Shown: piece after piece, positions 1 to 19,937 of the stretch
Layout of the letters: each line of letters begins with the position of its first letter
How positions within the stretch are numbered: the first letter of the stretch is position 1
NCBI GenBank assembly: GCA_964448755.1
Contig: CAYUXF010000004.1
Location: 1-51,672, forward strand
Direction of reading: 5' to 3'
DNA: 51,672 nucleotides
Source of the DNA: an uncultured bacterium
GTDB taxonomy: Bacteria; Margulisbacteria; Termititenacia; Termititenacales; CAYUXF01
Notes under the pieces: generated by a model
Seen by the model: the letters and a program-made list of their open reading frames with translations, nothing else
Told to the model about the DNA's origin: nothing
Databases searched by the model: none
Made by a program: the position numbers and the translations under genes

Positions 1-54
1 GTTGCGACTTTAGCAAAAGATGAAATACTTGATATTTTAGATCAAATTAGTGCT

Positions 55-1428
55 TTAGGTGTTGATTTTGTTTATTTTTTTGGCTGTTATTAATCCGGAA
101 ATAAAAACACCCTGTATTGCTGACATGGGGTTTGTCCAGTGTCCGCAAAGATAAAGATTTTTTAGAGGTGTTTTATTGGCTAAGCTATTTTTTCCTGAGA
201 ACTTTGGATGAGACGCGGCGCCAAAAAAGGCGCCTGAAATATTATTGGTTAATTTTAGATAAGAATCTGGTCCAAGAAAAACCATTGTTTCTATTTTGTT
301 TTTGATTTCTGGAAATAATTCCAATATTATTTTTAAATAAATACTTTTTATTTTATTTTTTTCTTTGATAGAGAGTTTTGATCTATTGTTTGGTAAAAAC
401 CCGATTATTCTTATAATGCTTTTGCTTTTTGGTGCTATTTTTTTTGAATGAATTGTTGGTATATTTACAATATATTTATACTTATTTAAATATAGGCCGA
501 CTTTATTTTTTTCTTTACTGATATCTGTGTTTATCCCAAGATATAAGGCACAACCGGAGAGACTTGGCTTTAGTTTTTTTATTTTTTTTAAATAGTCGCT
601 GGGGATATTTTTTGGTGATAAAAGTTTTTCAAAAGTTAACTGTGGACTAATATTGGAGATAACAATATTGGCAGTTTTTTGATTTTTATTATTATGATAG
701 GTTATTTGGGCAAGATTATTATTAATTATATTTATTTTTGTGACATTGGCGTTGTATATTATTTTTCCACTATAGTGTTCGAGATTTTTTACAAGATTTT
801 GTGCAAAATCTGCCATCCCTTTTTGGGGATAGAAAGCCTGATAATAAAAAATGCTGCCAATCAAAGTGGCTATGTTCAAGGCAGATGCTTTATTAGCTTT
901 AAGTCCCAGATAATTGCTGAATGCGGACAGGTGTGTTTTTAGTTGTTTGTTTTTAAAGTAATTGTCGAGCATTTTTTTATAAGTTATTGTATTAATATCT
1001 GTGATTTTGCAGTTGTTATAATAAGACAATATATTTTTAATATCTTCAAAAAAATCAGAAATGGCTTTTTTTTCTTGAGGATATTTTTCTTGCAATGAGT
1101 AGATGAATTTATCTGCCGGTAAATTGTTTTTGATTTTTAGGCTTTCAATAAAGAAATTATCGAACTCGGTCAATTTACTGAATTTTGTTTTAAAAGGTAG
1201 CTGATCTAGATAATGACCAACGGGATTGTTTTTGTCGCCGACAGCGGTTAGAAAGTGTGGTCCTATATCAAAGGTGTATCTTTTTTTTTTTAAAGAAGAG
1301 CAGTAGCCGCCGGGAAAGCTATTTTTTTCAAGAATTGTTACATTGTAATTGTTTTTTGCCAATTCTATGCCGCAGATCAATCCTCCTATGCCGCTACCGA
1401 TAATTATAACTGTTGGTTTACTTTTCAT
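55..1428 (-). CDS. FAD-dependent oxidoreductase, phytoene-desaturase (CrtI/CrtD)-like family
   Basis: 457-aa ORF. N-terminal dinucleotide-binding motif VIIIGSGIGGL...ILEK. C-terminal NLYLCGHWTNP...ISG is typical of the CrtI/amine-oxidase fold. Its start overlaps the upstream KS-like gene by 11 nt, so it is the last visible gene of the minus-strand operon. Confidence 0.75.
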   Translation of the reverse strand: MKSKPTVIIIGSGIGGLICGIELAKNNYNVTILEKNSFPGGYCSSLKKKRYTFDIGPHFLTAVGDKNNPVGHYLDQLPFKTKFSKLTEFDNFFIESLKIKNNLPADKFIYSLQEKYPQEKKAISDFFEDIKNILSYYNNCKITDINTITYKKMLDNYFKNKQLKTHLSAFSNYLGLKANKASALNIATLIGSIFYYQAFYPQKGMADFAQNLVKNLEHYSGKIIYNANVTKINIINNNLAQITYHNNKNQKTANIVISNISPQLTFEKLLSPKNIPSDYLKKIKKLKPSLSGCALYLGINTDISKEKNKVGLYLNKYKYIVNIPTIHSKKIAPKSKSIIRIIGFLPNNRSKLSIKEKNKIKSIYLKIILELFPEIKNKIETMVFLGPDSYLKLTNNISGAFFGAASHPKFSGKNSLANKTPLKNLYLCGHWTNPMSAIQGVFISGLITAKKINKINT

Positions 1429-2461
1429 ATTTTTTTAATATTATAGTTGAGATCCTGCCGTCAGAATTAATATTATTAATTAGGATCGTTTTGTGTTTGT
1501 TTGTTGTTAGATTTAGATTGTTTAGTCGCTTGTTTTGAAATATTAGTAAAGCAACAATTATTTGTAAAGGCCCAGAGAGACCAAGCCCTTCTTTGGTATG
1601 TTTTTTTACTGCCAATGTCGGCTGTTCTTTGCCAAAGATTTTTTCAATGGAGTTTTGTTCAGCTGTATCTATTTCGGGATTTAAATTATTTTTATTTGTT
1701 AAAATCAGGTTTATGTCTGAGTAGGTTAGTTTGTTTTCATTCAAAATATCCTTGATGTTTTCTTCAACATTTTTATAGATATTATTGTTTTGATTTGTTC
1801 GATAGCCAATTATTTCTGCCATGATAGGTGTTTTTTCTTTTACAGCGGTTTTTGTCCTTTTTAATTGAAATAATGCGGCACCTTTTCCAAAACCGTAAAA
1901 TTTTTTACTGGGATTAAAAATATATTTAAGTTCTTTATTGTATTCATCTCCGCCGCCGCAGATGATTTCATGCAAAGATGAATTATTGTTTAAATAAAAA
2001 TAGCCCATTCCTATCGCATCAATACCTGAACAGAGACCGCTGCTGATAGTTTCGCACAATGTTAATTTTTTTTCTGTTAGAGCAATTCGGCAGGCAGGGA
2101 TATTTAGTACTGTGTCGGGAAATGCGCCGGGATTTATTCCATAATATCCCTTTTCTTGTGCCGATCTTTCAAACGTGTAAATACTGCTTAAACTGGATAG
2201 TGCAGAACCAATAACAATATTTTTTAATGGTTTTTCTAAATATTTTTTTAATAATACCGAAGCAAGTAATAAGTATTTGCTTAAATTGCTTTCTAAAGAA
2301 TTAAGCGGAATGCTTTTTTGTAATAGATTGGTTACTATATTTTCAAAATTTTCAGATTTTTGATTCTGTTGATTTACAGATGCAAGGTTTTTAATAAAGT
2401 TATCCAGACCGATTCCCAGAGGTGAAACTATTTCTGCTGCGGTTATAGCAATAGAGCTCAT
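1418..2461 (-). CDS. Ketosynthase-like partner subunit (chain-length-factor-type, probably non-condensing)
   Basis: 347-aa thiolase-fold ORF. It keeps a Cys in GLCSGIDAI, but the HGTGT catalytic-His block of the neighbouring KS aligns to LTNKNN (His replaced). An ATGA start/stop overlap with the upstream KS is typical of KS/CLF pairs. Confidence 0.65.
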   Translation of the reverse strand: MSSIAITAAEIVSPLGIGLDNFIKNLASVNQQNQKSENFENIVTNLLQKSIPLNSLESNLSKYLLLASVLLKKYLEKPLKNIVIGSALSSLSSIYTFERSAQEKGYYGINPGAFPDTVLNIPACRIALTEKKLTLCETISSGLCSGIDAIGMGYFYLNNNSSLHEIICGGGDEYNKELKYIFNPSKKFYGFGKGAALFQLKRTKTAVKEKTPIMAEIIGYRTNQNNNIYKNVEENIKDILNENKLTYSDINLILTNKNNLNPEIDTAEQNSIEKIFGKEQPTLAVKKHTKEGLGLSGPLQIIVALLIFQNKRLNNLNLTTNKHKTILINNINSDGRISTIILKKYEK

Positions 2462-3678
2462 TGTTTATTCTCTGAAAATTTTTTAATGATAATAGATGTA
2501 TTAATGCCGCCAAACGCCAGGGCGTTAGACATGACAATGTTTAGCTCTTTTTTTCTTGCTTTGTTTGGTATGTAGTCAAGATCACATAATGGGTCAGTTG
2601 TTTCATAATTAATTGTTGGTGGCATCAAGTTGTCTCGCAATGCCAGGCAACAGGCCACTGCTTCAATGGCGCTGGCTGCTCCCATGCAATGACCTAGCAT
2701 TGATTTGATAGAACTGATAGGCGTTTTGCAAGCAGTAGTTTTAAAAACGTTTTTTATGGCTTTTGTTTCAATCTGGTCATTAGTTAATGTTCCGGTGCCA
2801 TGGGCGCTAATATAATCAATATCTTTTGGTTGTATCTTGGCCATTTTCAAGGCATCTTTCATGGCCTGGCTGAGCCCTAGTCCTTCCGGGTGAGGGGCTG
2901 TAAGATGATAGCTGTCGCAATTTAGACCATACCCAATTATTTCACCGTAAATCTTAGCTTTTCTTTGAAGGGCAGTTTCTAAAGTTTCTAATAAAAGAAT
3001 GCCACTCCCTTCTCCAATTAAGATGCCAGATCTGTTCTTATCAAAAGGCTGAACTTTTTCTTTGGCCATAGAGCGTAATTTTATAAAGCCGGCATAGGCG
3101 GTATAAGAAAAAGAGTCACTTCCGCCAGCTAGTGCATATTGAACAATTCCATTTTTTATTAGTTCTGCAGCTCTGATTATTGCGTAGTTGCCAGCAGAAC
3201 AAGCCATAGGGAAGGTAAATGTTGGTCCGTTTAAATTTAATTCTTTGTTGATACCAGCGGCTATCTTCCAGGCTGGATATATTTGATATAAAAGTTTTTT
3301 TCGTTTAGGGGCAAGAGTTTTGTTGAATTTTTCATAAAGAACGTTACCTTCACCGCCGGTAACACCAATACATACTGCGGTTTGCTTGTTGTTAAGTGAA
3401 ATATTATTTTGGCAGGCCATTTTGGCGGCGACAATGGCAAATTGCGCGGCCGGTCCATAGTTTTTTAATGAACTTTTTTTAATAAAAAGCTCTGGCTGAA
3501 AAGAGTTTATTTCTCCACCGTGGGTAAAACTAAAATCTTTAGTATCATATTTTGTAATTGGTGAAATTCCACTTTTTCCGGTTACTATATTTTTCCAGAA
3601 GATATCCGGTTCGTTACCTAGTGCAGAGACTATACCCAGTCCGGTAATTACTATTCTGGTAGGTTTTTTGTTTTCCAA
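2458..3678 (-). CDS. Beta-ketoacyl-ACP synthase, KAS II (FabF)-like, intact catalytic triad
   Basis: 406-aa ORF with active-site Cys in MACSAGN, His in SAHGTGT and His in MLGHCMGAAS. It lies 3 nt downstream of an ACP gene. Confidence 0.9.
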   Translation of the reverse strand: MENKKPTRIVITGLGIVSALGNEPDIFWKNIVTGKSGISPITKYDTKDFSFTHGGEINSFQPELFIKKSSLKNYGPAAQFAIVAAKMACQNNISLNNKQTAVCIGVTGGEGNVLYEKFNKTLAPKRKKLLYQIYPAWKIAAGINKELNLNGPTFTFPMACSAGNYAIIRAAELIKNGIVQYALAGGSDSFSYTAYAGFIKLRSMAKEKVQPFDKNRSGILIGEGSGILLLETLETALQRKAKIYGEIIGYGLNCDSYHLTAPHPEGLGLSQAMKDALKMAKIQPKDIDYISAHGTGTLTNDQIETKAIKNVFKTTACKTPISSIKSMLGHCMGAASAIEAVACCLALRDNLMPPTINYETTDPLCDLDYIPNKARKKELNIVMSNALAFGGINTSIIIKKFSENKQ

Positions 3679-3681
3679 TTT

Positions 3682-3924
3682 TTATAGTTTTTTTGTTAAA
3701 TAGGCTTCAACTAAGGCAATGAATTGACCGACAGATTTTAGGTCATAGAGGTCGTTATTATCTATTTTAATGTTATATTTAGATTCTATATCAGAAACCA
3801 ATTCTAACATTTTTAAAGAATCAGCCTCAAGTTCTTTTAAAAAAAGAGTTTGAGGCGTTATTTTTTCAATAGGTTTTTTAAATGAAGTGGCAATAATTGA
3901 AAATATACCTTGTTGAATACTCAC
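3682..3924 (-). CDS. Acyl carrier protein
   Basis: 80-aa ORF with phosphopantetheine attachment motif LEADSLKMLELV (DSL). GTG start preceded by AGGAG about 8 nt upstream. Confidence 0.85.
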   Translation of the reverse strand: MSIQQGIFSIIATSFKKPIEKITPQTLFLKELEADSLKMLELVSDIESKYNIKIDNNDLYDLKSVGQFIALVEAYLTKKL

Positions 3925-3983: not shown

Positions 3984-4562
3984 ATGTCATATTTACATAC
4001 TAATTTTGCAAAAATAGGCACAAAAAATTTATTTTTAATGGATTCTTTGCCTGCTGATCTGGAAAAAGTTAAGAATTTTTTTAAAAATAATAAAGATGTT
4101 CTTAATTACTCTAGTTGGCAGGATATTTACCAACAAGACGAAGGGCTCTCTTTTTTTGAAAAATCATTAAGGACACAGTTTGAATATCCGCGAAAAAGTT
4201 TTATTTTAGGCGTTGTTTCTAATAATAATCCTGCTGAAATGATAGGTGTTTGTAGTATATGTATTGATGAAGAAAAAAAAGAGGGTATTATTAGACTAGC
4301 TCTTGCCAGGAATATTCAGGGGCTCTTTTATTCTTTAGAAGTAATAGAGGCTCTTTTGGAATTTGGGTTTCAGGTTTTAAACTTTCATAAAATTATTTCC
4401 TTAGTAGATGTAGATAATGATATTTTAAAAAAAATATATTTGCGAGCAGGCCTTAAAGAAGATGGGAAATTACTGCAATATTTGTTTTATGGTAATTCTT
4501 GGCACGATCAATATTTGTTTTCTATTTTGCACAAAGATTGGCTGGAGCTGAAAAAAAGATGA
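3984..4562 (+). CDS. GNAT-family N-acyltransferase (RimJ/RimL-like)
   Basis: C-terminal GNAT core: ...FGFQVLNFHKIISLVDVDNDILKKIYLRAGLKEDGKLLQYLFYGNSWHDQYLFSIL. The ORF track starts at 3897 but that overlaps the ACP gene; the internal ATG at 3984 (MSYLHTNF) is preferred. The start is uncertain. Confidence 0.65.
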   Translation: MSYLHTNFAKIGTKNLFLMDSLPADLEKVKNFFKNNKDVLNYSSWQDIYQQDEGLSFFEKSLRTQFEYPRKSFILGVVSNNNPAEMIGVCSICIDEEKKEGIIRLALARNIQGLFYSLEVIEALLEFGFQVLNFHKIISLVDVDNDILKKIYLRAGLKEDGKLLQYLFYGNSWHDQYLFSILHKDWLELKKR

Positions 4563-5134
4563 ACAAAACAATAATGAAATTATCTGAATATTCTGTGAAA
4601 GAAATAGACTTTGATGATTTTGCTGCCTGCGCAATTTTTATAAGAAATAATCCTGATTTATTATCTTTTGATGGCTGGGGAAAGATAAAAAATATAGAAG
4701 AATTCAATTATTGTTTTCACAAATATCTGGTTGAAAAGCATGAAAACAAGAGTATTTATTCTATTTATCAAATAATTGATAATGATTCTGAAATAATAGG
4801 TTTTTGTGGATTTAAGTTAATTGATAAAACTTTCCTGATGACGGCAATTGGTCAAGGTGAGGCGGCTCTGTTATTTTGTTTTTCTGCAGAAATAGAAAAG
4901 ATCATTAAAAAAGAAATTCTATCTGAATTTATACGCTATGGGTTTAAAAAGTTAAATTTAAAACGTCAAAGATTTTTGGTTAGCGTTGATAGTGAAGAAG
5001 GGATCTCTTTTATTGCTGAATTGAATTTTATTAAAGAGGCGTTGCTTAGAGAACATTATTTTGCGGATAATGGTTGGCATGATTGTTTTTTGTATGCTGC
5101 GGTTAATTCTGTTTATCCAGGAGTAGCTAATTAA
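4559..5134 (+). CDS. GNAT-family N-acyltransferase (RimJ/RimL-like), tandem paralog
   Basis: ATGA overlap with the previous gene (ATG 4559, TGA 4560-4562). GNAT core: YGFKKLNLKRQRFLVSVDSEEGISFIAELNFIKEALLREHYFADNGWHDCFLY. Confidence 0.65.
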   Translation: MNKTIMKLSEYSVKEIDFDDFAACAIFIRNNPDLLSFDGWGKIKNIEEFNYCFHKYLVEKHENKSIYSIYQIIDNDSEIIGFCGFKLIDKTFLMTAIGQGEAALLFCFSAEIEKIIKKEILSEFIRYGFKKLNLKRQRFLVSVDSEEGISFIAELNFIKEALLREHYFADNGWHDCFLYAAVNSVYPGVAN

Positions 5135-5863
5135 ATGGTTTTTTTTGCCAGAGACAGGCTATTTAAAAACAATAAAAATTATCCCAAAGTTTTTAAGTTT
5201 AATGCGCTGGTTTCCCAAGTGTTTGATAACATGCTCAAGCGCAGTGTCCCTTTTTACTATAATATTCAAAAAGAGATCTGTTATTTTGCTAAAAAATTCA
5301 TCAAACCAAATACCAATGTTTATGATCTTGGCTGTTCAACCGGCTATACTGTCCGTAAAATTGCTAAAAACTTTAAAAAACAAAATATAACTTTATGGGC
5401 CGTTGATTATTCAAGCGAATTGCTCACTAGAGCGAAAGATCGTTTAAGAAAATACAAAAACATTAACTATATTAATTGTGATCTTAATAAAGATTTTAAA
5501 ATTTCTGGAGCCAGCTTTGTTGTTGCCAACTTAGTTTTACAGTTTTTAAAATATTCTTCCAGACAGAAACTTTTGAAAAATATTTATTCAGGTCTTCAGC
5601 CCGGCGGTTGTTTTATAATGGTTGAAAAATTGAGAAACGATAATTTTTTTCTGGAGAATATTTTTGTGGATCGTTACTATTTTTTTAAACAAAAAAACCG
5701 GTATTCAAGAGAGGAGATTGTTCGCAAAGAACGAGCGCTGAAAAGTATTTTATCTCCACTGACAATGCAAAAAAATATAGAGCTTTTGCAAAAAGCAGGC
5801 TTTTCTAATATAGAAGTATTTTTTAGGTGGTTTAATTTTTGTGGATTTATAGCGGTAAAATAA
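5135..5863 (+). CDS. cmoA: Carboxy-S-adenosyl-L-methionine (Cx-SAM) synthase, CmoA family
   Basis: 242 aa, collinear over its full length with E. coli CmoA as I recall it. Matching blocks: VFDNMLKRSVPFYYNIQ / VFPDMIQRSVPGYSNII; VYDLGCSTG / VYDLGCSLG; NLVLQFL..RQKLLKNIYSGLQPGG / NFTLQFL..RQALLDKIYQGLNPGG; YSREEIVRKERAL / YSELEISQKRSML; FFRWFNFCGFIAVK / WFQCFNFGSLVALK. Confidence 0.85.
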   Translation: MVFFARDRLFKNNKNYPKVFKFNALVSQVFDNMLKRSVPFYYNIQKEICYFAKKFIKPNTNVYDLGCSTGYTVRKIAKNFKKQNITLWAVDYSSELLTRAKDRLRKYKNINYINCDLNKDFKISGASFVVANLVLQFLKYSSRQKLLKNIYSGLQPGGCFIMVEKLRNDNFFLENIFVDRYYFFKQKNRYSREEIVRKERALKSILSPLTMQKNIELLQKAGFSNIEVFFRWFNFCGFIAVK

Positions 5864-5867
5864 AGAT

Positions 5868-6866
5868 ATGTATAGTGAAATATTTTCAAAAATAGCTACT
5901 CCGCAACTAAACGATAATGTTGTTGAGCGTCAAAAAAACAGATTATTTTCTTCAAATATACCTAAAATGATTGAACTCTTTAATCTTAGTGCAGCGCCTG
6001 TTATTTTAGATATTGGCGCAGGGACCGGTCAGTATAGCTATGCTTTTGCTGAGTATTTACAAGATAATGCCACTATTTATGCGGTGGAGGTTTTTAAGGA
6101 TAGGTATGATTACATAAAAGATCAAGTGGCTCTTAGAAATTATAAAAGTATTTTGCCAATGTTACTTTCTAGAAGTAATGATGATGAATTTTATTTTAAT
6201 AACAGTTATGACCTGATATTTTTGGGTAACAGTTTTGAATATATTAATAATAAGCAAAATTTTCTATCAAAATTAAGAGATAAGTTAAAAGAGCATGGTA
6301 AACTGGCAATAATTATGCATCGTGATATTAGCCCTTTTACAGAAGAGGATATTTTGGATAACGCTGGGTTGTTAAAGGCCTTATTAGATGAGAAACTGGA
6401 TAGTATATTTTATTTATCGGAAAAGAAAGAACCGCTGGCAAGCCTGAATTATTTCTTTAATGATTTAGACTGGACTGCCAAATATTTTCGCTATTGCCAG
6501 CAATTAAAATGGCTTCCTGTAAGCCAACTAGATGATCTGCAAAAAAGAACTTTAATGGGAATTATCAGTTTTTTAAAACGTGAAGAGAATATTTTTGATG
6601 ATAATTTTGAGATAAAAGACCCTGCCTTGATTACACCAAAAATAAATTTGATGTTTAAAATAGTTAATAAGTTAGTTTTTAGTGATCATTATAAACAATA
6701 TTTACGTGGAGATATTTTCAAGGAGAATTTTTTCTCTGATTTTAACAGAATGCAAAGCAGTGCTTTCTTGCAAGAGATAAAAGAAGTCATGGCTGCGGCC
6801 GGATATGGTTTTGCTGGTGTTTATGATTTTATTCCTTGGTATTATTTAGTAATTTTTAACAAGTAA
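5868..6866 (+). CDS. Class I SAM-dependent methyltransferase with a C-terminal extension of about 170 aa
   Basis: Motif I VILDIGAGTGQYS at residues about 45-57, plus LIFLGNSFEYI and GKLAIIM blocks. The domain layout differs from CmoB, whose GxGxG motif sits near residue 130, so it is not an obvious CmoB ortholog. Confidence 0.7.
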   Translation: MYSEIFSKIATPQLNDNVVERQKNRLFSSNIPKMIELFNLSAAPVILDIGAGTGQYSYAFAEYLQDNATIYAVEVFKDRYDYIKDQVALRNYKSILPMLLSRSNDDEFYFNNSYDLIFLGNSFEYINNKQNFLSKLRDKLKEHGKLAIIMHRDISPFTEEDILDNAGLLKALLDEKLDSIFYLSEKKEPLASLNYFFNDLDWTAKYFRYCQQLKWLPVSQLDDLQKRTLMGIISFLKREENIFDDNFEIKDPALITPKINLMFKIVNKLVFSDHYKQYLRGDIFKENFFSDFNRMQSSAFLQEIKEVMAAAGYGFAGVYDFIPWYYLVIFNK

Positions 6867-6888
6867 CATGTTAAGATAGTAGTTATAT

Positions 6889-7917
6889 ATGATTGAAACT
6901 GAAAATAATATCACTAATATATCTGATCCGGTAATCAAAAGTAATTGGTGCAATAAATTTGAAATTCCTTTAACAATGCTACAAACTGATTCTATTTTTG
7001 ATATTATTCAATCTGTAAAATACGGGGAATATATTCAAAGTGTTTATTTGCCTCTTTATGGGTTTGACGGTTTTTCTGGTAGACCTTTTTTTAAGAAAAC
7101 TAATGACAATCAAGTTGTAACTGTACCAGGCTATCAAAAGACAAAAGAAGAGTGGATCAGATTGATTAAAAACGTCGCTCAATACAAGCCTGTAACACTT
7201 ACAGTTCCTTTTTCAAAAAATATAAATTTAATTAAAGAATATATTGATTATGGCGTAAGTGAGATCATGATCAATCAATATTGGCCGGAACTTGATCAGG
7301 TTAAAGACAAGATCAAAATATCAAGATCTATTCTTGCTTATCATGATTCAGATGAGCCCATTGATGATCGTTTTGATGCAGTGATTATTCCCTATCGTAA
7401 AACTATGGACATAGAATGGTTAGAAAAGAATAGCAAGAAATTTGAGCTTATTGCGATCATAAATAATTATTGTGTAATAGAGTGCCCTTTGCAGAGTTAT
7501 AAAGAGAAGCTAATGCATAATTTTTATCGTGGTATTTTCCCTGTAAATAATGAGATCATGCCGTTTACTAAAAATTGTCTTAGATATGGCAAAACGACAT
7601 CTGCTATGTTGCCTAGAGATATTATTATCAAACTGAGTAAGTATATTTCTCGTTATAAATTAGTTGAAAGAGCATCTTCTCCCGCTGCTTATATTAGCTC
7701 TTTGAATTATTATATTTATAATGAACCTTTTTGTTTTGATTCTTTTAATTCTTCTGATTGGGTAAGAGAAGGTTTTAGTGCCGAGAAGATGGCTAGGATA
7801 ATGAAAGATAAAGAAGATCATTTTAGAGGATCAAACCTGGAAACACTTAATTGTAAATTTCAATGTTCTAGCTGTGATAGAAAGTGCTATAGTATTAATG
7901 ACTGGAATGATGAATAA
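6889..7917 (+). CDS. Cys-rich hypothetical protein, tentatively a U32-like barrel with a C-terminal Fe-S type Cys cluster
   Basis: 342-aa ORF. The pattern FEIPL...SVYLPLYGFDGFSGRP...KPVTLTV...GVSEIMI loosely follows the beta/alpha pattern of the U32 protein at 15809 and of the C-terminus of the 1556-aa protein. C-terminal NCKFQCSSCDRKC has spacing C-x3-C-x2-C-x3-C. There is also CVIEC. Confidence 0.35.
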   Translation: MIETENNITNISDPVIKSNWCNKFEIPLTMLQTDSIFDIIQSVKYGEYIQSVYLPLYGFDGFSGRPFFKKTNDNQVVTVPGYQKTKEEWIRLIKNVAQYKPVTLTVPFSKNINLIKEYIDYGVSEIMINQYWPELDQVKDKIKISRSILAYHDSDEPIDDRFDAVIIPYRKTMDIEWLEKNSKKFELIAIINNYCVIECPLQSYKEKLMHNFYRGIFPVNNEIMPFTKNCLRYGKTTSAMLPRDIIIKLSKYISRYKLVERASSPAAYISSLNYYIYNEPFCFDSFNSSDWVREGFSAEKMARIMKDKEDHFRGSNLETLNCKFQCSSCDRKCYSINDWNDE

Positions 7918-8542: not shown

Positions 8543-8550
8543 CTAATTAG

Positions 8551-8814: not shown

Positions 8815-8820
8815 TTTTTT

Positions 8821-13100: not shown

Positions 13101-14808
13101 CATCATGATTAATAGTGGAGAAGCTTAAGAATTGTAAGTTTTTTAATTTTCTGTTTTTTAGCATTAATTCAATCGAATAAAAAAGTGAATTTAAGCCGAG
13201 TTGTCCGGTCATTTTTTTTGTAAGCCCCTCATCATGTTGTCTTTTAAAATATAAAACCTTGGGGATAATATAAATTGGGGCCAGGGTTTCTAACCTAATA
13301 AATATATCGGCGTCTTCGCAGGCATTTAAAACTTCCGGGTTCCAGTGCCAACCGCCGATCTTTTTGAGATGTTTGGCATTGATCAAATAAGGTTGATAAA
13401 TATTGTAGATATCGATAGTAAATCCTTGATATTTTTGCCGTTGTTCAGGGATGATTTCCAGTGACATTATCTCTGATGTTATTCTGAGTCCGGCACGGAT
13501 GAGAGAAAAATCTTTATGTTTCGAAATTTCTTTTTTTAATTCTGCCAGTAGGGTAGGTGCTACATGGTCATCTGAATCAAGCGGAATTATATAGGGGCTG
13601 TTGGAGTTACTAAAGAGTATCTGTCGTGTAGGGCCTACACCTAAATTTCTGGTATTTTGAAAAAATTTTATTTTTTTATGTTTTTTATATTTTTCAACCA
13701 ATTCAGCTGCTTTTTTTTGGTCTGGTGGATTATCAAAACAAATGAGTAATTCCCAGTTTTTGTTAGTTTGCTGTATTACGGAAGTTACTGTTTCTTCAAT
13801 ATGTCGCAAGTCATAGGCCGGGCATTGAAAAGAGAAAAGAGGCCCTTTCTTCGCTCTATTGTTGATTGTTTTTTTTATGGGATTGATCTGAGTGTTTTTT
13901 AATATTTGAACACAAATTTCTGGCAGATCAAAGTCATAAAAATTATTATTATTAAAATTTATTAAATACTTTCCTGTTTTTAGATCTGAAGGTATTTTTG
14001 GATTTTTTATAGGGAGATCTTTATCTGTGATTGTTGTTTGATAATTATTCAAAATACTGATCTCTAATTTTTTGGAGTTATAAATTATTAAGTTAAAGTT
14101 TTTGTAGATTTGTTCATCAAGATAATTTTTAATTTTTAAAATATCTTTTTCCTGGGTTATTTTGAAAAAAAGAGATAGCAGTGGTTGCTCTAATTGCCAA
14201 AACTGCCCGGTAAAGGATTTTTTATTTATGGGGAATTTTAGATATTTTGGTAGGTAACTAAAGAGAGGTGTATTTTGCCAGCGGTAATAAAAAGCAGTGT
14301 AGTTTTCTTTAATCAATTTAGCAGCTTTTTCTGCGCCAAACGTGCCGCAATTGGCATGATGAATTTTACTATTGTGAGCGACTAATATTTTATAGCCGGC
14401 TTCAATTACTTTAAAACAGAGGTCAATATCCTCAAAATAACCTGGTCCAAAAATATTATCAAATAAGATATTTTCTTTGATCAATTGGCGATCGATCATA
14501 AAACAAGTGCCATAGACATAAGGGGCTTCAGTGTAAGTTGTTTTGCTGGAGATGGGGTTTTGGTAGGGATTATTGCAATTTATTAAAGGGGCTACAATGC
14601 CAACATTATTTGCCTTTTCAAACCCTTTAGCTAAGTTTTCCAGCCAGCCTTTATTAACTGTAGTATCATTGTTAAGTATTACCAGATATTTTGCTGTGCA
14701 ATGGGGAAGAGCCAGATTAATACTTTTTATAAACCCTAGGTTTTCATTGTTTTTAATTATTTTAATTTTCTTATGTTTTTTTAGTGAGTTATAATAATCT
14801 ATTGCCAA
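10138..14808 (-). CDS. Multidomain glycosyltransferase fusion: GT2 + GT2 + GT2 + GT4(GT-B) + C-terminal U32-like module
   Basis: 1556-aa ORF. GT2 no.1 is about 14340-14808 (ILNNDT, YFEDIDLCFKVIEAGYKI). GT2 no.2 is about 13230-13850 (PLDSDD). GT2 no.3 is about 12190-12800 (LISDNII, FDFCFRARHNGYKI). GT4 is about 11000-12000 (ETFGRAIVEGMAAGCAII, an EX7E motif). The U32-like tail is about 10138-10900 (HIYLGSEFCEE...ILLTPP...EIVFNDWGLL). The true start is probably upstream of 14808 (see findings). Confidence 0.8.
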   Translation of the reverse strand: MAIDYYNSLKKHKKIKIIKNNENLGFIKSINLALPHCTAKYLVILNNDTTVNKGWLENLAKGFEKANNVGIVAPLINCNNPYQNPISSKTTYTEAPYVYGTCFMIDRQLIKENILFDNIFGPGYFEDIDLCFKVIEAGYKILVAHNSKIHHANCGTFGAEKAAKLIKENYTAFYYRWQNTPLFSYLPKYLKFPINKKSFTGQFWQLEQPLLSLFFKITQEKDILKIKNYLDEQIYKNFNLIIYNSKKLEISILNNYQTTITDKDLPIKNPKIPSDLKTGKYLINFNNNNFYDFDLPEICVQILKNTQINPIKKTINNRAKKGPLFSFQCPAYDLRHIEETVTSVIQQTNKNWELLICFDNPPDQKKAAELVEKYKKHKKIKFFQNTRNLGVGPTRQILFSNSNSPYIIPLDSDDHVAPTLLAELKKEISKHKDFSLIRAGLRITSEIMSLEIIPEQRQKYQGFTIDIYNIYQPYLINAKHLKKIGGWHWNPEVLNACEDADIFIRLETLAPIYIIPKVLYFKRQHDEGLTKKMTGQLGLNSLFYSIELMLKNRKLKNLQFLSFSTINHDDKGITFYFHLKYYNIYTIHSFTVPSISDLNLLPVKKIKTSEIAEIFGNNSFSWQEFFLYANITLEEQITAPDIEERVAKSKLSFTKKYQFCELLEKYSIFCETIDIILLTSNDFSLTKRALAALYLRTRHPFNLIILNKNITSAKKSYYDQLQKKYKNIKIIIAPQTTSEIAFINDGLNNRQSRYVCLISDNIIISDNWLNKLKNGFIFCKEIGIVGPNYTDNFTDIKNKKKGQTEELPETYTEKNWLWDSCLLIKKTLLQKAGGLNKNFIESDLYTYFDFCFRARHNGYKILLANDCLLYKKNKPLAIKNLEKNYYVLKTIWQEHPLFLELPPEICLNKPVANFELKEQLIIEEKNNNKIKLAAIKIEQYANISHQVTDQDNLKYLSNYFEVILIKEEHLQRSLIDFFNFLTTNQISFIFLNITIDAYPLFTYRNDNKLPIGFIVWPYIFEPWRARYFRLAREAKNIDTFLTFSKYLHSSFQQISLNFDLLKMAGPINYREFPKNYDQSNELSLVYCGRLTPVKNLHVLLSLLGASKNAISFKLNIICPLENLNKEEKQYLALLHQTIERFNLKENIVFHGDLTQEKIKRNQILNESNVLVFLSTDTGETFGRAIVEGMAAGCAIITTNWQAVNELVIDGENGFTIDINNNIPDTQQLLSALILLSDNKTRQAMQKINRQKAKQYDYNQQIPKLVTYLKNKEPIKTAVEQIEKSNNWEKTEKELLAQLPEYLKEHRLELALAIDNIKKITDLEHLNYTHIYLGSEFCEELIPTKEKTAAFLNYCLKNKKRFILLTPPLTEKGLKKIIELLPLLPLNCEIVFNDWGLLSSIKKHQLTPRLGRLLLKVKREPRQTNNNELLKYLRTANLTEKIFQKYLLSNKINGIEFDNVWQGYDAVLPEDLSNSLYLPYVYITTTKKCLFKEKDLCYQHCQQKYITANLRNYDEPLLINGNTQFYTNTSLPDSTCLEKLKISRIVYQPKFSQQKTL

Positions 14809-14964
14809 TGGATCGGTGGAGTTATCATCAATAATGATTATTGAAAAAATATCTGACGTGGAGCAAAAAATAGAAGCAAGACATTTTTTTGTTAATGTAT
14901 GATTGTTGTATACAGGGATTAGTATTTCAACTTTAATTGTTTTAAATCCTAGCTTTTAGTGTTT

Positions 14965-15702
14965 TTAGTTATTTTGTTGTAGGTCCTCTTTAAGTTTTTT
15001 TAATAAACCTAATTCAATTTCTTCATCTATTGCAACAGCTGGATTGTACTTAAGTGCAATCCCTGAATCAATGATTTGAAGTGCCTCGGTATTACGTTTT
15101 TTATTTAATAAATATTCACCATAGAAACGATATACTTGACGATTTTCATGGCCAAGCTCTAATGCTTTTTTAAAATCTTTTTCCGCTTGGATATCATCGC
15201 CTATACTTACTGGTGGTGTAGGTGCTTTTGAATAAACAACTGCTCGGAGTAGATAAGCCGTTCCTGGTCGGTCATGTTCTTTCCCAAATTCTGGGTTTAG
15301 TTCTATTGCTTTGTTTAGTGCTTCAATGGTCTCCTTGAGATAAATAAGTTTTTCTTGATTATTAGAATACCTTGCCAGTTTACTGGTATTAATTCCGTAT
15401 ACAAAATAGCCTATAGCGTTATTGTTGTTTAATTTTATCGCGTTAGCTGCTGCATCTCTGCCTAGTTGAAATATTTCTCTTTTTTTTATATTTTCAGTAA
15501 CAAAAAGATCTCCATAAAAGTAAGCCGAGTGGGCAAAATGCGCATAATTTTCAAAAGTTTGGTTATTATCAATAGCGTCTTTAAAATGGTGGTAAGCATT
15601 TATTAATTTGGTGTTGGCTTGTTTTTGAGCCAATACTTCATTACTGTTACTGGCAAATAAAATAGAAACAATTAACAATAACAACAATATTTTTTTAAGC
15701 AT
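14965..15702 (-). CDS. Secreted TPR-repeat protein
   Basis: Signal peptide MLKKILLLLLIVSILFASNSNEVLAQ, followed by TPR-like helical repeats (AIELNPEF..., FKKALELGHEN..., YGEYLLNKKRNTEALQ). It sits immediately upstream of, and is co-oriented with, the giant GT gene. Confidence 0.7.
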   Translation of the reverse strand: MLKKILLLLLIVSILFASNSNEVLAQKQANTKLINAYHHFKDAIDNNQTFENYAHFAHSAYFYGDLFVTENIKKREIFQLGRDAAANAIKLNNNNAIGYFVYGINTSKLARYSNNQEKLIYLKETIEALNKAIELNPEFGKEHDRPGTAYLLRAVVYSKAPTPPVSIGDDIQAEKDFKKALELGHENRQVYRFYGEYLLNKKRNTEALQIIDSGIALKYNPAVAIDEEIELGLLKKLKEDLQQNN

Positions 15703-15808: not shown

Positions 15809-16711
15809 ATGAAAATAGAGGTCCCAGTTAGAGGTTATAGAGAGGCTGTAGAGTTGCTGGCGGCTGGTGCCGATATTCTCTATGGTGCTCTGGCCCCACA
15901 ATTCTATAGCAATGCCGCTGGTGCTGTTAGCCGTAGAGCCTGGCAAGAGTGTAATATTTTTTCTTTACAAGATCTAAAGGCAATTTGTCAGTTAGTTAAA
16001 GAAAAAAATAAAAAGTTTTATTTGGCCTTAAATGAACATTTTTATAATGAAGAACAATTGCAGGGGATTAGCGCGTTTTTAAAAATTAATAAATTTATTA
16101 AAAATATTATTATTGCAGATCTAGGCTTGGTCCTTTTTTTAAGAAAAAACTTTCCTAAACTAAATATTATTGCCAGTGTTGGGACACATGTGTTTAATTC
16201 TGCGGCGGTTAGTTTTTATGAAAATTTAGGAGTTAAAGAAATAGTTTTGCCAAGAGAGATAACGGCTGAAGAGGTAGTTTTATTAAAAAACAGTGCAGCG
16301 CAAATTAGTTTTTCGTATATTATAAAAAACGATGATTGTCCTAATATTGATGGTCTTTGTGCGTATTCTCATGGCATTTATGATGGTAGTGGTCCATGTA
16401 CAGATCTTTATAATATTGTTTGTAAAGATAGAATTTCCGAAGACGTCGTTGAAATAAATGATTATAATTTTAGATCACGTCAAAATTGCAAGGTTTGTCA
16501 ATTAAAGAGTTTTGCGCAAGCGGGGTTGGATATTGTTAAAATTGCTGGCAGAGGTAGTTCTTTAAAGAAGCTAGTTCAAGATATTGATTTTTTGAAACAG
16601 GCGATTGGTTTTTTGAAATATCCAGAGCAGCAATTTTTGTTTAGTCTAAAAAATGCATATAGAAAAAGTTATAATTGTGAATGTTTGGTGAATTGTCAGG
16701 ATGGTTCTTAA
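15809..16711 (+). CDS. Peptidase-U32-family protein (family of the O2-independent hydroxylases UbiU/UbiV, TrhP, RlhA)
   Basis: MKIEVPVRGYREAVELLAAGADILYG..., KKFYLALN, IIIADLGL, IVLPREIT. The U32 Cys signature C-x4-G-x-C-x-x-S is present as CPNIDGLCAYS, with further Cys in CTDLYNIVC. The ORF track begins at TTG 15773; ATG 15809 matches the usual family N-terminus. The start is uncertain. Confidence 0.8.
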   Translation: MKIEVPVRGYREAVELLAAGADILYGALAPQFYSNAAGAVSRRAWQECNIFSLQDLKAICQLVKEKNKKFYLALNEHFYNEEQLQGISAFLKINKFIKNIIIADLGLVLFLRKNFPKLNIIASVGTHVFNSAAVSFYENLGVKEIVLPREITAEEVVLLKNSAAQISFSYIIKNDDCPNIDGLCAYSHGIYDGSGPCTDLYNIVCKDRISEDVVEINDYNFRSRQNCKVCQLKSFAQAGLDIVKIAGRGSSLKKLVQDIDFLKQAIGFLKYPEQQFLFSLKNAYRKSYNCECLVNCQDGS

Positions 16712-16737
16712 TAAAAATAAACTAGAAAAGAGGATCA

Positions 16738-17760
16738 ATGCAGGTTTTAGATATAATGCAGTTAGAGTTTAATAAATTGAAACAACAGGACTTGCCTTTC
16801 CATGTGTTGGTTAAATTTAGCGGAGGTAAAGATAGTTCATATTTATTATATTTAATGAAAGAAAAATATGGGTTAACTCCGTTAGCTTTTTCAGTGATCC
16901 ATCCTTTTGTGGGGAAACAAGCCCTTTCCAACATGAAAAGAGTTTGTCGAAAATTAAAGGTCAAGTGGCAGCCGTGTTTTGTTGATAAAAAAGAGTTCTA
17001 TCAATATATGAGTTATGGCCTCAAGAATTATCAAAAATATAATACAAAATATCACCAGGCTGATCTTTATGGTTGTAGGCTCTGTTGTTCGGTTTATAAT
17101 ACGCTAGCTTATAGAAAAGCACTGGAATTAAATATTCCTTGTGTGATCGATGGTAGTGATTTTAATCAGCTGGGTTTTCCCTTATTTATACAAGGTTGTT
17201 CAGTCAAGGAAGAGCTGAATAAGGATGAAACTTTCTTTGGTTCTTATGAGCGGATCCTTCAGGATCTTCAACAGCAAAAATCGCTTAAGCCTATATATTT
17301 ATCGGTTTATGCCAAAATGCCGGATAAGACTTTCCCGGATTATGTTGCTCCGCTTTCAATAATTGAATATGACCCTGAAAAAGCTAAGTTGTTGCTGGAA
17401 GCAAAAGGGATAATTAAGTCTAATAAATTGTTTGTTGAAAAAACCAACTGTACGGTTCGCCATCTTTTTGCCCACCTAGGGTTTAAGTATTTTAATTGCC
17501 ATCCCTATCAGGAACACGTTTTGCGGATGGCTGACTCTGGTCGCCATGGTTTTACTCGTGATAAGGTGAGCGCCTATTTTGTAGAATTAAAAAATTTATT
17601 AAATTATCTAGCTAAAAATCCAGGCTTAAAAAATAAAGAGCTAAAGCAGCTGTATGCTAATTATCCTGTGCTGGCTTTGCGCCATAACTGTTCTTTGCCC
17701 TGGCTGAAAGATTTACAGCAGCTGCATAGATATGCGGAATATTTAGATGTTAAACTTTGA
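16738..17760 (+). CDS. PP-loop ATP pyrophosphatase (adenine-nucleotide alpha-hydrolase), resembling N-acetyl-sugar amidotransferases
   Basis: PP-loop SGGKDS in VLVKFSGGKDSSYLLYLMKEKYGLTPLAF. CRLCC motif and IDGSDFNQLG block. The overall pattern resembles the WbpG/PseA-type amidotransferase family, but TtcA/QueC-like roles cannot be excluded. Confidence 0.65.
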   Translation: MQVLDIMQLEFNKLKQQDLPFHVLVKFSGGKDSSYLLYLMKEKYGLTPLAFSVIHPFVGKQALSNMKRVCRKLKVKWQPCFVDKKEFYQYMSYGLKNYQKYNTKYHQADLYGCRLCCSVYNTLAYRKALELNIPCVIDGSDFNQLGFPLFIQGCSVKEELNKDETFFGSYERILQDLQQQKSLKPIYLSVYAKMPDKTFPDYVAPLSIIEYDPEKAKLLLEAKGIIKSNKLFVEKTNCTVRHLFAHLGFKYFNCHPYQEHVLRMADSGRHGFTRDKVSAYFVELKNLLNYLAKNPGLKNKELKQLYANYPVLALRHNCSLPWLKDLQQLHRYAEYLDVKL

Positions 17761-17835
17761 TTTTTTTAGGCTTTGGTTGTTAGAAAACTTATTTAATAAA
17801 ATTAAGATTTTCTTTTTGTTAAGTTAAATATCTGT

Positions 17836-18747
17836 TTGCCAGCTCCCAAAGAAATTATTTTAAATATTGAGAGCGCTTGTAACCTGCGGTGCAGTTATTG
17901 TTTTCAGAAAAGCCAGATTAATAGCCCGCATAGAATTAAATTAACACTGGGGCAGGTTAAGTTAATTGAAGAAAGAATTTCTAAGTATTATAAATCGTTT
18001 TTAAAGCCTAGGATTTTTTTAGTTGGCGGGGAGCCAACAATCAATCCGGAGTTTGTGCAGATCGTTAAATTCTTAAACAGCAAGAAATATGATCTTACAG
18101 TTGTTACAAATGGTCTTGAGTTAGACAAGTTTTATGCGGAAATAATTCCGCTGAATAACTCTAAAATTGTCCTGTCTATTTCAATACATTCTACAGATTA
18201 TGATTATTATTTACAAAAGATCAAAGCTTTTTATTGTATTTTTGATAAAAGAAATTATTATCTGGTTGTTTCTGTTACCATGAACTATTTAATTGAAAAC
18301 TCAGTAGACATCGAACAATTTATCAGAAAATTTCAGGACAGTGGAATTAAGTATATTTTATTTTTACATTCCTTAGACGCACTTAGTCTGGGTCAAAAAA
18401 TTGACTTTCCTGCACTTGAGTTACAGTTTCGAAAATTAAAAAAAGAAAAATTTAAAATCCCGTATGTTTTTTACCCGGCGCTGCCTTTTGATAAAATTAA
18501 ACCTTTTTATGCAGATAAGGAATTTCCGGATTTGACTAAGAAATGTTTTTATCCCTGGCAGGGGATGCAGATCTTGCCAGATGGACGAGTTATGTTATGT
18601 CCGGAAAGTGGTAGCTTAGGCAATCTTTTAGCGGATAGTGCTAATTTATTTATTAATGATCAGGCCAGGGCTTTTCGTAATAATATTCGAAATCAAGGAC
18701 CAGCTTATAATTGGTGTCGTCGCTGTTTTTTTAGAATATACTATTGA
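17836..18747 (+). CDS. Radical SAM enzyme with partial (twitch-like) C-terminal Cys domain
   Basis: TTG start. CNLRCSYC (CX3CX2C) at residues 15-22; LVGGEPTINPEF. The C-terminus has C...DGRVMLC (G-x4-C) and WCRRC, but not the full seven-Cys SPASM signature. Confidence 0.85.
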   Translation: MPAPKEIILNIESACNLRCSYCFQKSQINSPHRIKLTLGQVKLIEERISKYYKSFLKPRIFLVGGEPTINPEFVQIVKFLNSKKYDLTVVTNGLELDKFYAEIIPLNNSKIVLSISIHSTDYDYYLQKIKAFYCIFDKRNYYLVVSVTMNYLIENSVDIEQFIRKFQDSGIKYILFLHSLDALSLGQKIDFPALELQFRKLKKEKFKIPYVFYPALPFDKIKPFYADKEFPDLTKKCFYPWQGMQILPDGRVMLCPESGSLGNLLADSANLFINDQARAFRNNIRNQGPAYNWCRRCFFRIYY

Positions 18748-19937
18748 GCTAATTTTTGCCTTGGGGTTTTGGCTGTCTTATTTTGTAAATCCAATAATGG
18801 TTTAAAATAGAAAAAATAATTGAGAATTTGCCTCTGTTTTTTGACCTCTTTTTTGTAAGCTTGAGGATTTCTTTCAAAAAATTCAATTTTTTTTAGTGCT
18901 TTGGCAAAGGAAGTTGTGGAGGTCTTTCTGGTGAGCAGTAAGTTATTGTAACACTCCCTGGGGTTTCCTATGGCTAAACAGCCGGCAGCAACTGCTTCAA
19001 TCAGGGAATTTCCCCATATTTTGCGCTTGCCTCCGCTGCGCAAGTAATATTTGCTTTTTAAAAGGTCGAGAATGATTGTTTTAGTATCAGGAGAGACAGT
19101 GCGTATTTCGCCAAATTGTTTTAGGCTGGCCAGTTGTTCTTTAGTTAGGCTTTGCGCGGTAAAAGCCTCAATAAATATTCCCGAACGCTCTTTTTTTTCT
19201 AGAGTATTTGGCGCTAGTTCTTCCAGGCAACCATAATACTGCAGATTGAAAGGAAAATTTATAATATGCGGAGCTTGTTTAAATAAATTAAAGCTGGCGC
19301 TAAATTGATTTAAAAATAGATCATACCCAGATAACGGTTTTGCCAGCGAGCCCTGATATTCCGGCATCAGCGGTTCGGTAATTAAATAACACCAAAGAAC
19401 CTTGGGGTTTTGCTGAATTATTCTTGCTGGGATGGCCAGGTCAAAAGCAATTACCAGGTCATAGTTTGACCAGTTGATGCTTTCTGGTTTGATGGCTAAA
19501 TTATTTTGGGCAGAGCTGGGGCTGTTCTCTGGAGGAAAATCCGTGGATTTAATTATAAAAAAATCCGCATTAAATTTAGTAAAAAGACCAACCAGACCGG
19601 AATGTTTATTGGAGTTCAGTATCATTTTTTTGAAATCATTTCCAGATGGCATATTGTAAAGCATTTCAAGCTTAGATTCTTTGACAATAGCAATTCGGTA
19701 GTTTTTTAGTTTTGAAAGTTCTGTATTTAGGGCTAAAAATCCTGAAAATGCTCTGGTGAAAGCTTGGTCAATTTTCTTGTTTAGTATATATAAGTATAGT
19801 GGTAATTGTGCAGGCTTGAATTTGTGGGGACTTTTTATAATTTTAAAAAGTTTTGCGAATAATTTTTCTATAATTTTTTTAGATATTTTTTTTAGCATTA
19901 TTACTATAATAATAATTACATTAATTAAATGTAGCAA
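18741..19937 (-). CDS. Membrane-anchored GT-B-like glycosyltransferase (tentative)
   Basis: N-terminal hydrophobic segment. C-terminal GGKRKIWGNSLIEAVAAGCLAIGNP resembles the GT1/GT4 sugar-donor-binding helix. The start is uncertain (TTG 19937 or ATG 19898). The 3' end overlaps the convergent rSAM gene by 7 nt. Confidence 0.45.
   Translation of the reverse strand: MLHLINVIIIIVIMLKKISKKIIEKLFAKLFKIIKSPHKFKPAQLPLYLYILNKKIDQAFTRAFSGFLALNTELSKLKNYRIAIVKESKLEMLYNMPSGNDFKKMILNSNKHSGLVGLFTKFNADFFIIKSTDFPPENSPSSAQNNLAIKPESINWSNYDLVIAFDLAIPARIIQQNPKVLWCYLITEPLMPEYQGSLAKPLSGYDLFLNQFSASFNLFKQAPHIINFPFNLQYYGCLEELAPNTLEKKERSGIFIEAFTAQSLTKEQLASLKQFGEIRTVSPDTKTIILDLLKSKYYLRSGGKRKIWGNSLIEAVAAGCLAIGNPRECYNNLLLTRKTSTTSFAKALKKIEFFERNPQAYKKEVKKQRQILNYFFYFKPLLDLQNKTAKTPRQKLAQ

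Follow-up and report, generated by a model that had tools for sequence, protein, structure and literature searches.

A tyrosine-rich protein, a zinc ribbon and a SPASM-type radical-SAM enzyme form a cassette shared by Margulisbacteria and phages

The locus

The window analysed here, 51,672 nucleotides from an uncultured Margulisbacteria bacterium of the order Termititenacales, is an entire contig (CAYUXF010000004.1, positions 1-51,672) and thus offers no room for a leftward extension. Its first 20 kb (1-19937) contain 18 open reading frames (ORFs), which a first-pass annotation made from the sequence alone had described as one hybrid cluster of tightly packed operons. The ORF map bears out the coordinates and the dense packing of these operons. 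Comparison with other genomes, described below, singles out four of the genes, those of Y191, Zn87, the radical S-adenosylmethionine (rSAM) enzyme rSAM440 and a giant glycosyltransferase (GT), as a conserved core (7967-14937) set between accessory flanks:

7967-8542, plus strand: Y191, a Tyr/Asn/His-rich protein of 191 aa; core component, presumed substrate or structural protein
8551-8814, plus strand: Zn87, a zinc-ribbon-type protein of 87 aa; core component
8821-10143, plus strand: rSAM440, a radical-SAM enzyme of 440 aa (PF04055) with SPASM-type cysteines; core component
10138-14937, minus strand: giant GT, GT2-GT2-GT2-GT4 plus a C-terminal domain (Pfam/NCBIfam), convergent with rSAM440; core component

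Within the block, intergenic gaps of 6-8 nt (8542/8551 and 8814/8821) are found together with overlaps of 4-11 nt (1418/1428 and 2458/2461) and with convergent overlaps (10138/10143 and 18741/18747). The proposal of a low-GC island holds only mildly: the GC content is 0.322 in 1-19937 against 0.400 in the remaining window, but a second stretch with four ORFs (24432-27412) is equally low (0.319), which makes the signal a modest one. Elsewhere on the contig lie proC, rarA, rpoB/rpoC and genes for ribosomal proteins (Pfam/NCBIfam), and the window is therefore cellular DNA. An Rfam scan found one tRNA only. A scan for promoters and terminators gave 112 sites against 85 expected, which is uninformative in such AT-rich DNA.

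Conservation of the core

The gene neighbourhoods of the rSAM440 family were compared with the window by tblastn and clustering. Counting rSAM-family loci with enough upstream DNA, 16 distinct loci were obtained (the window, L045, L048/L050, L003, L001, L004, L005, L053, L131, L133, L135, L136, L145, L146, L147 and L148), with rSAM identities of 30-80%. Two Margulisbacteria genomes and phage contigs from IMG/VR are among the loci that carry the cassette. The Y, zinc-ribbon and rSAM genes occur together in all 16, and Y is missing from none of the family-level rSAM loci whose upstream DNA is long enough. The order Y-ribbon-rSAM, with gaps of a few bases, is kept in the 15 bacterial-type and L135-type loci and differs in L136 and in L138, a near-identical fragment of L136; in every bacterial-type locus the zinc-ribbon gene sits between those of Y and the rSAM enzyme. 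Of the 16 loci, at least 10 have GT genes within 10 kb of the cassette. The adjacency of the three genes across all these loci supports a maturation function.

Most of the other loci have an extra rSAM gene of about 335-365 aa just before Y and another of about 330 aa just after the 440-aa enzyme. The lineage of the window lacks both, and its cassette is thus a reduced version. In locus L148 (1-17415), at least 12 radical-SAM genes stand in a row around those of Y and the zinc ribbon; two of these radical-SAM genes encode B12-binding domains.

The closest relative of the window (L045 and L046, which may come from the same sample) is about 80% identical, has the same order from the CrtI-like gene through the U32 gene, and originates from a pulp-mill anaerobic digester (PMC11556013). 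In the next lineage, L048/L050, Y is 73% identical, and the whole side of the locus that carries the acyl carrier protein (ACP), ketosynthase (KS), CrtI-like, GNAT, CmoA, methyltransferase and 342-aa genes is replaced by TauE, adenylylsulfate (APS) kinase, sulfotransferase, CysD, CysN, a 378-aa protein and an aminotransferase. The acyl module (1418-3924) is shared with L045 and with no other cassette locus, and the GNAT, CmoA, methyltransferase and 342-aa genes are likewise conserved in L045 only. A check of co-localisation in related genomes, set beforehand, therefore gave a divided answer: the core stays together, but most of the flanks do not, and the notion of a single 20-kb hybrid cluster fails with the exchange of the acyl/GNAT/CmoA block for sulfation genes. 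What is conserved across distant genomes is the part that follows the logic of precursor, small partner, SPASM rSAM and GT, for which a likeness to PQQ and mycofactocin had been pointed out.

The Y protein family

Y191 has no match in Pfam, NCBIfam, PHROG or the PDB, and no signal peptide. A word-indexed search with Y191 alone returned three proteins; a full HMMER search of 1.84 billion representatives gathered a Y family of 80 clusters, and the Y-family alignment found no match in the metagenome scan. Members measure 190-370 aa. They begin with an N-terminal tail of the form M-x-Y-(S/N/Q)-(E/N/D)-(Y/H), continue with a conserved middle of three predicted helices and end in a C-terminal tail with Y-x-(D/N)-H. 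The N-tail is hypervariable and expands to repeats such as CSTSHSNSNN and DCEVVYSDYS, tails reaching about 220 aa. In Y191 it covers approximately residues 1-60, and both tails are rich in Tyr, Asn, His and Asp and carry Y/H-x-N/D-H/Y motifs. A Y-x-N/D motif is present at the C-terminus of 75 of the 86 family members, and Y182 and H185 are invariant in alignment A4.

Across the family, the residue shares in the N-tails are 12.7% for Tyr, 13.7% for Asn, 4.9% for His and 3.9% for Cys, against 2.7%, 8.0%, 0.9% and 0.1% in the core. The motif [YH]-x-[ND]-[YH] occurs in a median of five copies per N-tail. Cysteine is absent from 21 of 79 N-tails, that of Y191 among them. The Tyr/His/Cys enrichment and the repeated Y/H-x-N/D motifs argue for the tails as the site of modification. 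An AlphaFold2 model of Y191 built from 11 sequences places helices at residues 66-86, 120-138 and 160-175 between disordered tails, at low confidence (pLDDT 46). One member, P0196 (580 aa), combines His-Ser-Asn repeat tails, a glycine-rich domain, the Y helical core and a C-terminal Peptidase_S74 chaperone (SDKRLKKNI), an architecture which, judged by its domains, is of the tail-fibre type.

The gene order precursor, small partner, SPASM rSAM and GT2, together with the conserved C-terminal motif of Y, would also suit a mycofactocin- or PQQ-like pathway to a peptide made by the ribosome and modified after translation (RiPP) or a peptide-derived cofactor. A short segment of Y, for example the C-terminal Y-x-D/N-H, would then be cross-linked by the rSAM enzyme, excised, glycosylated and put to use as a small molecule, and a weak MftF-like match of the GT2 (NCBIfam, E 3.7e-8, below cutoff) points the same way. 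This is nevertheless the least likely of the alternatives considered. A precursor with a conserved folded core and hypervariable, expandable tails fits it poorly, as do the fusion of one Y member to a tail-fibre chaperone domain and the position of the cassette beside phage tail fibres; moreover, the cassette has no conserved peptidase, transporter or dependent dehydrogenase alongside it, and Zn87 is not PqqD- or MftB-like.

The zinc ribbon and the radical-SAM enzyme

An alignment of 13 Zn87 orthologues shows C19, C22, C66 and C69 to be invariant, in a CxxC...CxxC pattern, and the protein has no significant match in Pfam, NCBIfam, PHROG or the PDB. Zn87 is presumed to be the partner of rSAM440, serving in substrate presentation or electron transfer. 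Since rSAM440 has no recognition domain of its own and Zn87 is encoded between the presumed substrate and the enzyme, it is the obvious candidate for the recognition function.

The rSAM440 enzyme matches PF04055 with 49 bits (cutoff 29.5). Its CxxxCxxC motif (C16, C20 and C23) is kept by 90% or more of 29 members of the family, and C259, C264, C282, C328, C331, C337, C341 and C361 are invariant in the family. The alignment with the anaerobic sulfatase-maturating enzyme (anSME) spans the SPASM region, yet the Pfam SPASM model PF13186 gives no match. The best NCBIfam models are those of anSME (113.1 bits), PapB, DynA and cyclophane synthases, all far below their cutoffs, and PDB matches are to CteB, anSME (over the full length) and ChlB. 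The PDB alignments begin at residue 14 of anSME but only at residues 96-113 of CteB and SkfB, which bear a RiPP recognition element (RRE); rSAM440 therefore lacks an N-terminal RRE. The proximity to anSME, CteB, PapB and the cyclophane synthases supports a protein or peptide target. The family is discrete, with 31 homologues at E<1e-55 and the next matches only at 1e-22.

A distant rSAM enzyme (29% identity) in a Cytophagales metagenome-assembled genome (L006, 7498-8718) has no Y or ribbon gene upstream and ends in a Tyr-rich tail of its own (…DTGYYDSYSDNPMYND), which might be a fused substrate segment.

The giant glycosyltransferase

The reading frame of the giant GT is open upstream of the listed TTG (14808) as far as an ATT at 14937-14935, nine bases after an AGGA. 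In the extended product the first GT2 domain covers profile positions 2-120 with 82 bits (ILIPVYNN...DDNSTD), and its N-terminus aligns with that of the closest relative. A non-canonical start at the ATT (14937), rather than at the TTG (14808), thus appears likely from the reading frame. The enzyme has orthologues in L045 (68% identity), L050, L003 (37%, also convergent with the rSAM gene) and L146 (36%).

Four of the five GT domains claimed in the first-pass annotation, three GT2 and one GT4, are found here. The fifth had been assigned to a 398-aa ORF (18741-19937) called GT-B-like, an assignment that could not be confirmed, its best Pfam match having E=0.11. The C-terminal region of about 270 aa in the giant GT is conserved and contains cysteines. 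Its supposed relationship to U32 was not confirmed either: hhalign gives E=0.03 over 60 columns, including 'NDWGL/ADLGL', and there is no Pfam or PDB match. A single-sequence AlphaFold2 model of this domain is unusable (pLDDT 40).

Phage and tail-fibre context

A connection that had gone unnoticed in the first-pass annotation is that with phage tail fibres. In two IMG/VR contigs, L135 (179 kb) and L136 (75 kb), the cassette directly follows genes with PHROG tail-fibre matches (E 1e-28 and 1.6e-20), and GIY-YIG and HNH homing endonucleases and a T4-type RNA ligase are encoded nearby. The C-terminal module of the tail fibre is encoded by a gene of its own next to the cassette in L003, L053, L131, L133, L146 and L147, and both Margulisbacteria loci have BppL_N-like repeat proteins upstream. 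No tail-fibre homologue is present anywhere in the 51.7-kb window, and GenBank phage records gave no match to the rSAM440 or Y families. The tail-fibre hypervariable region of pelagimyophages has been described as carrying 'radical SAM' cassettes and glycosyltransferases, which were left unexplained (PMC7029224).

The run of genes that follows the cassette in the phage-type loci L133 (8066-15379), L053 (9911-16843) and L135 (12949-21083) is itself conserved. It encodes a carbamoyltransferase, a KDO8P-synthase-like protein, two rSAM-SPASM enzymes, an aminotransferase, a transaldolase-like protein and a CMP-sugar synthetase, and resembles a route to an unusual keto-deoxy sugar acid.

Accessory genes and their turnover

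The other 14 ORFs of the first 20 kb are the following (Pfam/NCBIfam):

55-1428, minus strand: CrtI/carotenoid-isomerase-like FAD oxidoreductase (PF01593, 77 bits; TIGR02730, 133 bits, well below cutoff)
1418-2461, minus strand: KS-like partner, inactive
2458-3678, minus strand: FabF-like KS with Cys-His-His
3682-3924, minus strand: ACP (PF00550) with a DSL motif
3984-4562, plus strand: first GNAT
about 4559-5134, plus strand: second GNAT
5135-5863, plus strand: CmoA (TIGR00740, 197.3 bits, cutoff 193.3)
5868-6866, plus strand: class-I methyltransferase
6889-7917, plus strand: Cys-rich protein of 342 aa, no family match
14965-15702, minus strand: secreted TPR protein with a signal peptide
15809-16711, plus strand: U32-family protein (PF01136, 92 bits)
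16738-17760, plus strand: PP-loop ATPase, weak WbuX-like match
17836-18747, plus strand: rSAM303, an rSAM-SPASM enzyme of 303 aa (Pfam SPASM match; MftC, 30 bits)
18741-19937, minus strand: protein of 398 aa, no Pfam family (best E=0.11)

Most of the family assignments made earlier agree with Pfam and NCBIfam: ACP, KS, the KS-like partner, the CrtI-like protein, the GNATs, CmoA, the methyltransferase, the rSAM-SPASM enzyme, the giant GT2x3-GT4 protein, TPR, U32, the PP-loop ATPase and the second rSAM. The 342-aa protein, which had been called U32-like, proved to have no Pfam, NCBIfam or PHROG match, and hhalign against the U32 protein gives a probability of 0.2%. BLASTP confirmed neither this U32 assignment nor the one made for the C-terminal region of the giant GT. 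The 398-aa protein has no PHROG match. The description of the tailoring enzymes as exclusively O2-independent is overstated, a CrtI-type flavoenzyme being uninformative about O2 use; an anaerobic setting is plausible, given that the closest relative comes from an anaerobic-digester metagenome.

The acyl module has the make-up of a minimal type II fatty acid or polyketide synthase (FAS/PKS): a KS with an intact triad (ACSAG, HGTGT and GHCMG), a partner without an active site, which has Ile, Asn and Glu at these positions, and an ACP with the phosphopantetheine Ser. No ketoreductase (KR), dehydratase (DH), enoylreductase (ER), acyltransferase or thioesterase was found in 1-20 kb (Pfam/NCBIfam). 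The genes from the first GNAT to the 342-aa protein form a single tight co-directional run that stops 49 nt before Y191. CmoA shares 35% identity with its E. coli namesake along the entire protein (E 2e-52) and falls short of the stricter model NF011995 (155 against 285). In a pairwise alignment, a Glu is aligned to Arg199 of the E. coli protein, with an Arg one residue further on. A cmoA-cmoB pair was considered and rejected: the neighbouring methyltransferase is 18% identical to E. coli CmoB over the generic fold (E 0.002) and matches no CmoB model.

At its right-hand end the region is variable. The TPR and U32 genes are also present in L045, and in L045/L046 the U32 gene is followed directly by a carbohydrate-binding protein gene and proC; 16738-19937 is absent there, and thus represents an insertion or deletion difference. 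In addition, the U32 gene of L045 (17884-18789; L046 is alike) is interrupted by an in-frame stop at a position that is Lys in the window, which reflects a pseudogene or else an error of assembly. The view of the block as a single unit therefore fails at this end too. The gene next to the block (20005-21030) encodes a secreted protein in which two carbohydrate-binding domains (CBM_4_9) are present; the gene adjoins proC in the closest relative as well, and marks the right-hand border of the variable region. On the left, the first 54 nt of the window hold no trace of the rSAM-SPASM gene found beyond the CrtI-like gene in the closest relative. Between the 342-aa homologue and Y, L045 has two short ORFs (8941-9832, minus strand) that cluster with the sulfotransferase of L048. 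These fragments suggest a decayed sulfation gene and an ongoing turnover of accessory functions.

Beyond close relatives, only the CrtI-like and rSAM303 genes recur with the cassette, both in the distant L146, where a CrtI-like homologue (34% identity, E 1e-32) stands beside an rSAM-SPASM gene, an arrangement also seen in L045, and a full-length rSAM303 homologue is present (E 5e-26). This recurrence bears on the idea that a lipid or polyketide module (ACP, KS and CrtI-like), tRNA-modification genes (CmoA and a TrhP-like U32) and the Y cassette are merely juxtaposed by chance. Conservation of the core alone past the closest relative would agree with such an origin, and so would the genuine homology of CmoA; in E. 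coli, CmoA and the U32 enzyme TrhP both serve the synthesis of uridine 5-oxyacetic acid (cmo5U). Chance seems rather improbable, however, in view of the L146 arrangement, of a methyltransferase beside CmoA that is not CmoB, of a U32 protein far below the TrhP cutoff (59.8 bits against 534) and of the uninterrupted direction of the genes leading up to Y.

The same turnover could be read in the manner of O-antigen loci, whose accessory genes swap between relatives. The GT-rich block of lower GC would then make a decorated surface polysaccharide or lipo-oligosaccharide, with rSAM enzymes modifying sugars, as BtrN-type and other sugar-acting rSAM enzymes do, and with Y and the ribbon as structural or regulatory accessory proteins rather than substrates. 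The swapped-in genes are typical sugar decorators (sulfotransferase with 3'-phosphoadenylylsulfate (PAPS) synthesis, WbqC, GNATs, carbamoyltransferase, KDO8P-synthase-like protein, aminotransferase and CMP-sugar synthetase), and the PP-loop protein resembles WbuX. A standard O-antigen, capsule or exopolysaccharide locus was rejected, in agreement with the first-pass annotation: among the 18 ORFs of 1-19937, Pfam and NCBIfam reveal no flippase or polymerase (Wzx/Wzy), ABC exporter, initiating phosphoglycosyltransferase or nucleotide-sugar gene. Those absences also speak against the broader glycan interpretation. Moreover, the conserved tight order of Y, ribbon and rSAM, with non-enzymatic, motif-rich proteins, is the signature of a substrate, a partner and a maturase, and the nearest relatives of rSAM440 act on proteins or peptides. 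A pathway of glycan synthesis is on these grounds considered unlikely.

A proposed product: a modified fibre- or adhesin-like protein

The favoured reading, to which a probability of roughly one half is given, is that the rSAM enzyme modifies the tails of Y with the help of its zinc-ribbon partner, that GTs add a variably decorated glycan, and that the product is a modified fibre- or adhesin-like protein. The four core genes (Y191, Zn87, rSAM440 and the giant GT) would thus make a post-translationally modified protein. Y191 would be the substrate, its three-helix middle serving as a handle and its Tyr/His/Asn/Asp-rich tails offering the modification sites, on which rSAM440 and Zn87 would use 5'-deoxyadenosyl radical chemistry. 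By analogy with cyclophane- and thioether-forming relatives, the likeliest reaction would be side-chain cross-linking at the Y/H-x-N/D motifs. Aromatic-X-X motifs of three residues are the target of triceptide synthases, and His-based ones are among them (PMC11499958). Y191 itself contains no Cys, and thioether formation therefore cannot be universal.

The GT2x3-GT4 enzyme would then build a glycan on the Y protein, and the flanking genes could supply decoration specific to each lineage: acyl groups (ACP/KS), acetyl groups (GNATs), carboxy-SAM or methyl groups (CmoA and the methyltransferase), amidation (PP-loop), redox steps (CrtI-like protein and second rSAM) and, in the sister lineage, sulfate. 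The product would most likely be a structural protein of the fibre or adhesin type, because the same cassette adjoins tail-fibre genes in phages. Each of the alternatives set out above covers a part of the data and fits the conserved triad or the recurrence in L146 less well than does maturation of Y.

Several points weigh against this interpretation. The lack of cysteine in the Y191 of the window limits any thioether chemistry. Known RiPP precursors do not resemble a substrate 190-370 aa long whose motifs lie at its two ends. No signal peptide is present in Y191, and neither an exporter nor a tail-fibre homologue is encoded in the window. Several loci mix many rSAM genes with sugar-acid biosynthesis genes, and some or all of the rSAM enzymes could act on sugars. 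Finally, the accessory genes of the window, other than those of the CrtI-like protein and rSAM303, would seem to be tied to the cassette by adjacency alone.

A more far-reaching form of the proposal is tentative. It holds that the cassette may belong to an unrecognised system in which rSAM enzymes (one in the window, up to a dozen in other loci) would cross-link the hypervariable Tyr/His/Asn/Cys-rich tails of a fibre-associated protein and GTs would decorate the protein. Large phages could in this way build or diversify the receptor-binding end of their tail fibres, and Margulisbacteria-like anaerobes could build a surface fibre or adhesin. Radical-SAM/SPASM maturases are familiar from small peptides, cofactors and sulfatases. 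Here the enzyme is tied to a protein some 200 aa long whose aromatic tails are hypervariable, to a new zinc-ribbon partner and to giant GTs, and this set also adjoins tail-fibre genes in large uncultured phages. If the proposal is correct, it would describe the first case of a structural protein, of a virion or of the cell surface, being matured by a radical-SAM pathway, and it would account for the unexplained 'radical SAM cassettes' of phage host-recognition regions. Tails both cross-linked and glycosylated would represent a new post-translational chemistry for host-recognition or surface structures, and accessory swapping (acyl/carboxy-SAM against sulfate) would amount to a natural diversification kit.

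Comparison with known systems

With anSME and the SPASM maturases CteB, PapB and DynA, rSAM440 shares the radical-SAM core and SPASM-type auxiliary-cluster cysteines. It aligns with anSME over the full length and, like it, has no N-terminal RRE; by this analogy it could act on a whole protein. It differs in its score against the anSME model (113.1 bits, TIGR03942 cutoff 349.45), in a C-terminal extension of about 60 aa, and in having a zinc-ribbon partner and a Tyr-rich candidate substrate instead of a sulfatase or a short peptide. No sulfatase gene was found in 1-24 kb (Pfam/NCBIfam).

The triceptide systems (XyeB, YhhB, HaaB, HtkB and GrrM/OscB) have in common with Y the repeated three-residue motifs led by Tyr or His, and their maturases are of the SPASM type. 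Against XyeB, YhhB, GrrM, FxsB and AmcB, rSAM440 scores 67-94 bits, where the cutoffs are 310-450, and it falls outside these families of three-residue cyclophane-forming enzymes (3-CyFE). Y differs from triceptide precursors in its length of 190-370 aa, its helical core and its motifs at both ends, without a leader/core layout. The cassette differs in having a giant GT and no protease or exporter, and cross-linking is suggested here by analogy only.

Mycofactocin (MftA-F) and PQQ (PqqA-E) follow the same logic of precursor, small partner and SPASM rSAM, with a GT2 in the case of mycofactocin. In the cassette, however, the partner is a zinc ribbon rather than PqqD or MftB, and the precursor is a protein rather than a peptide of 20-30 aa, which places it outside both systems. 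The peptidase and flavoenzyme steps are not conserved with the cassette, the MftC match is confined to rSAM303 (30 bits, NCBIfam), and the cassette occurs in phages.

Among the accessory genes, the window resembles the type II KS/chain length factor (CLF)/ACP systems (NodE/NodF and highly reducing type II PKS) in the Cys-His-His of the KS, the inactive partner and the DSL motif of the ACP. Its module is paired with a CrtI-like flavoenzyme, is without KR, DH, ER, acyltransferase or thioesterase, and belongs to this lineage only. As to the tRNA cmo5U pathway, CmoA scores above the TIGR00740 cutoff, but neither CmoB nor a U32 protein of TrhP level accompanies it.

The host-recognition regions of T4-like marine myophages (PMC7029224) offer a parallel of another kind. 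The cassette of L135/L136 likewise follows tail fibres and stands among sugar-modifying enzymes, a likeness drawn from the published description, whereas the window itself is cellular, with rpoB/rpoC and ribosomal genes. Systems in which an rSAM/SPASM maturase has its own substrate and partner are known; the novelty here lies in the type of substrate, in the partner, in the fused GT and in the occurrence beside phage genes.

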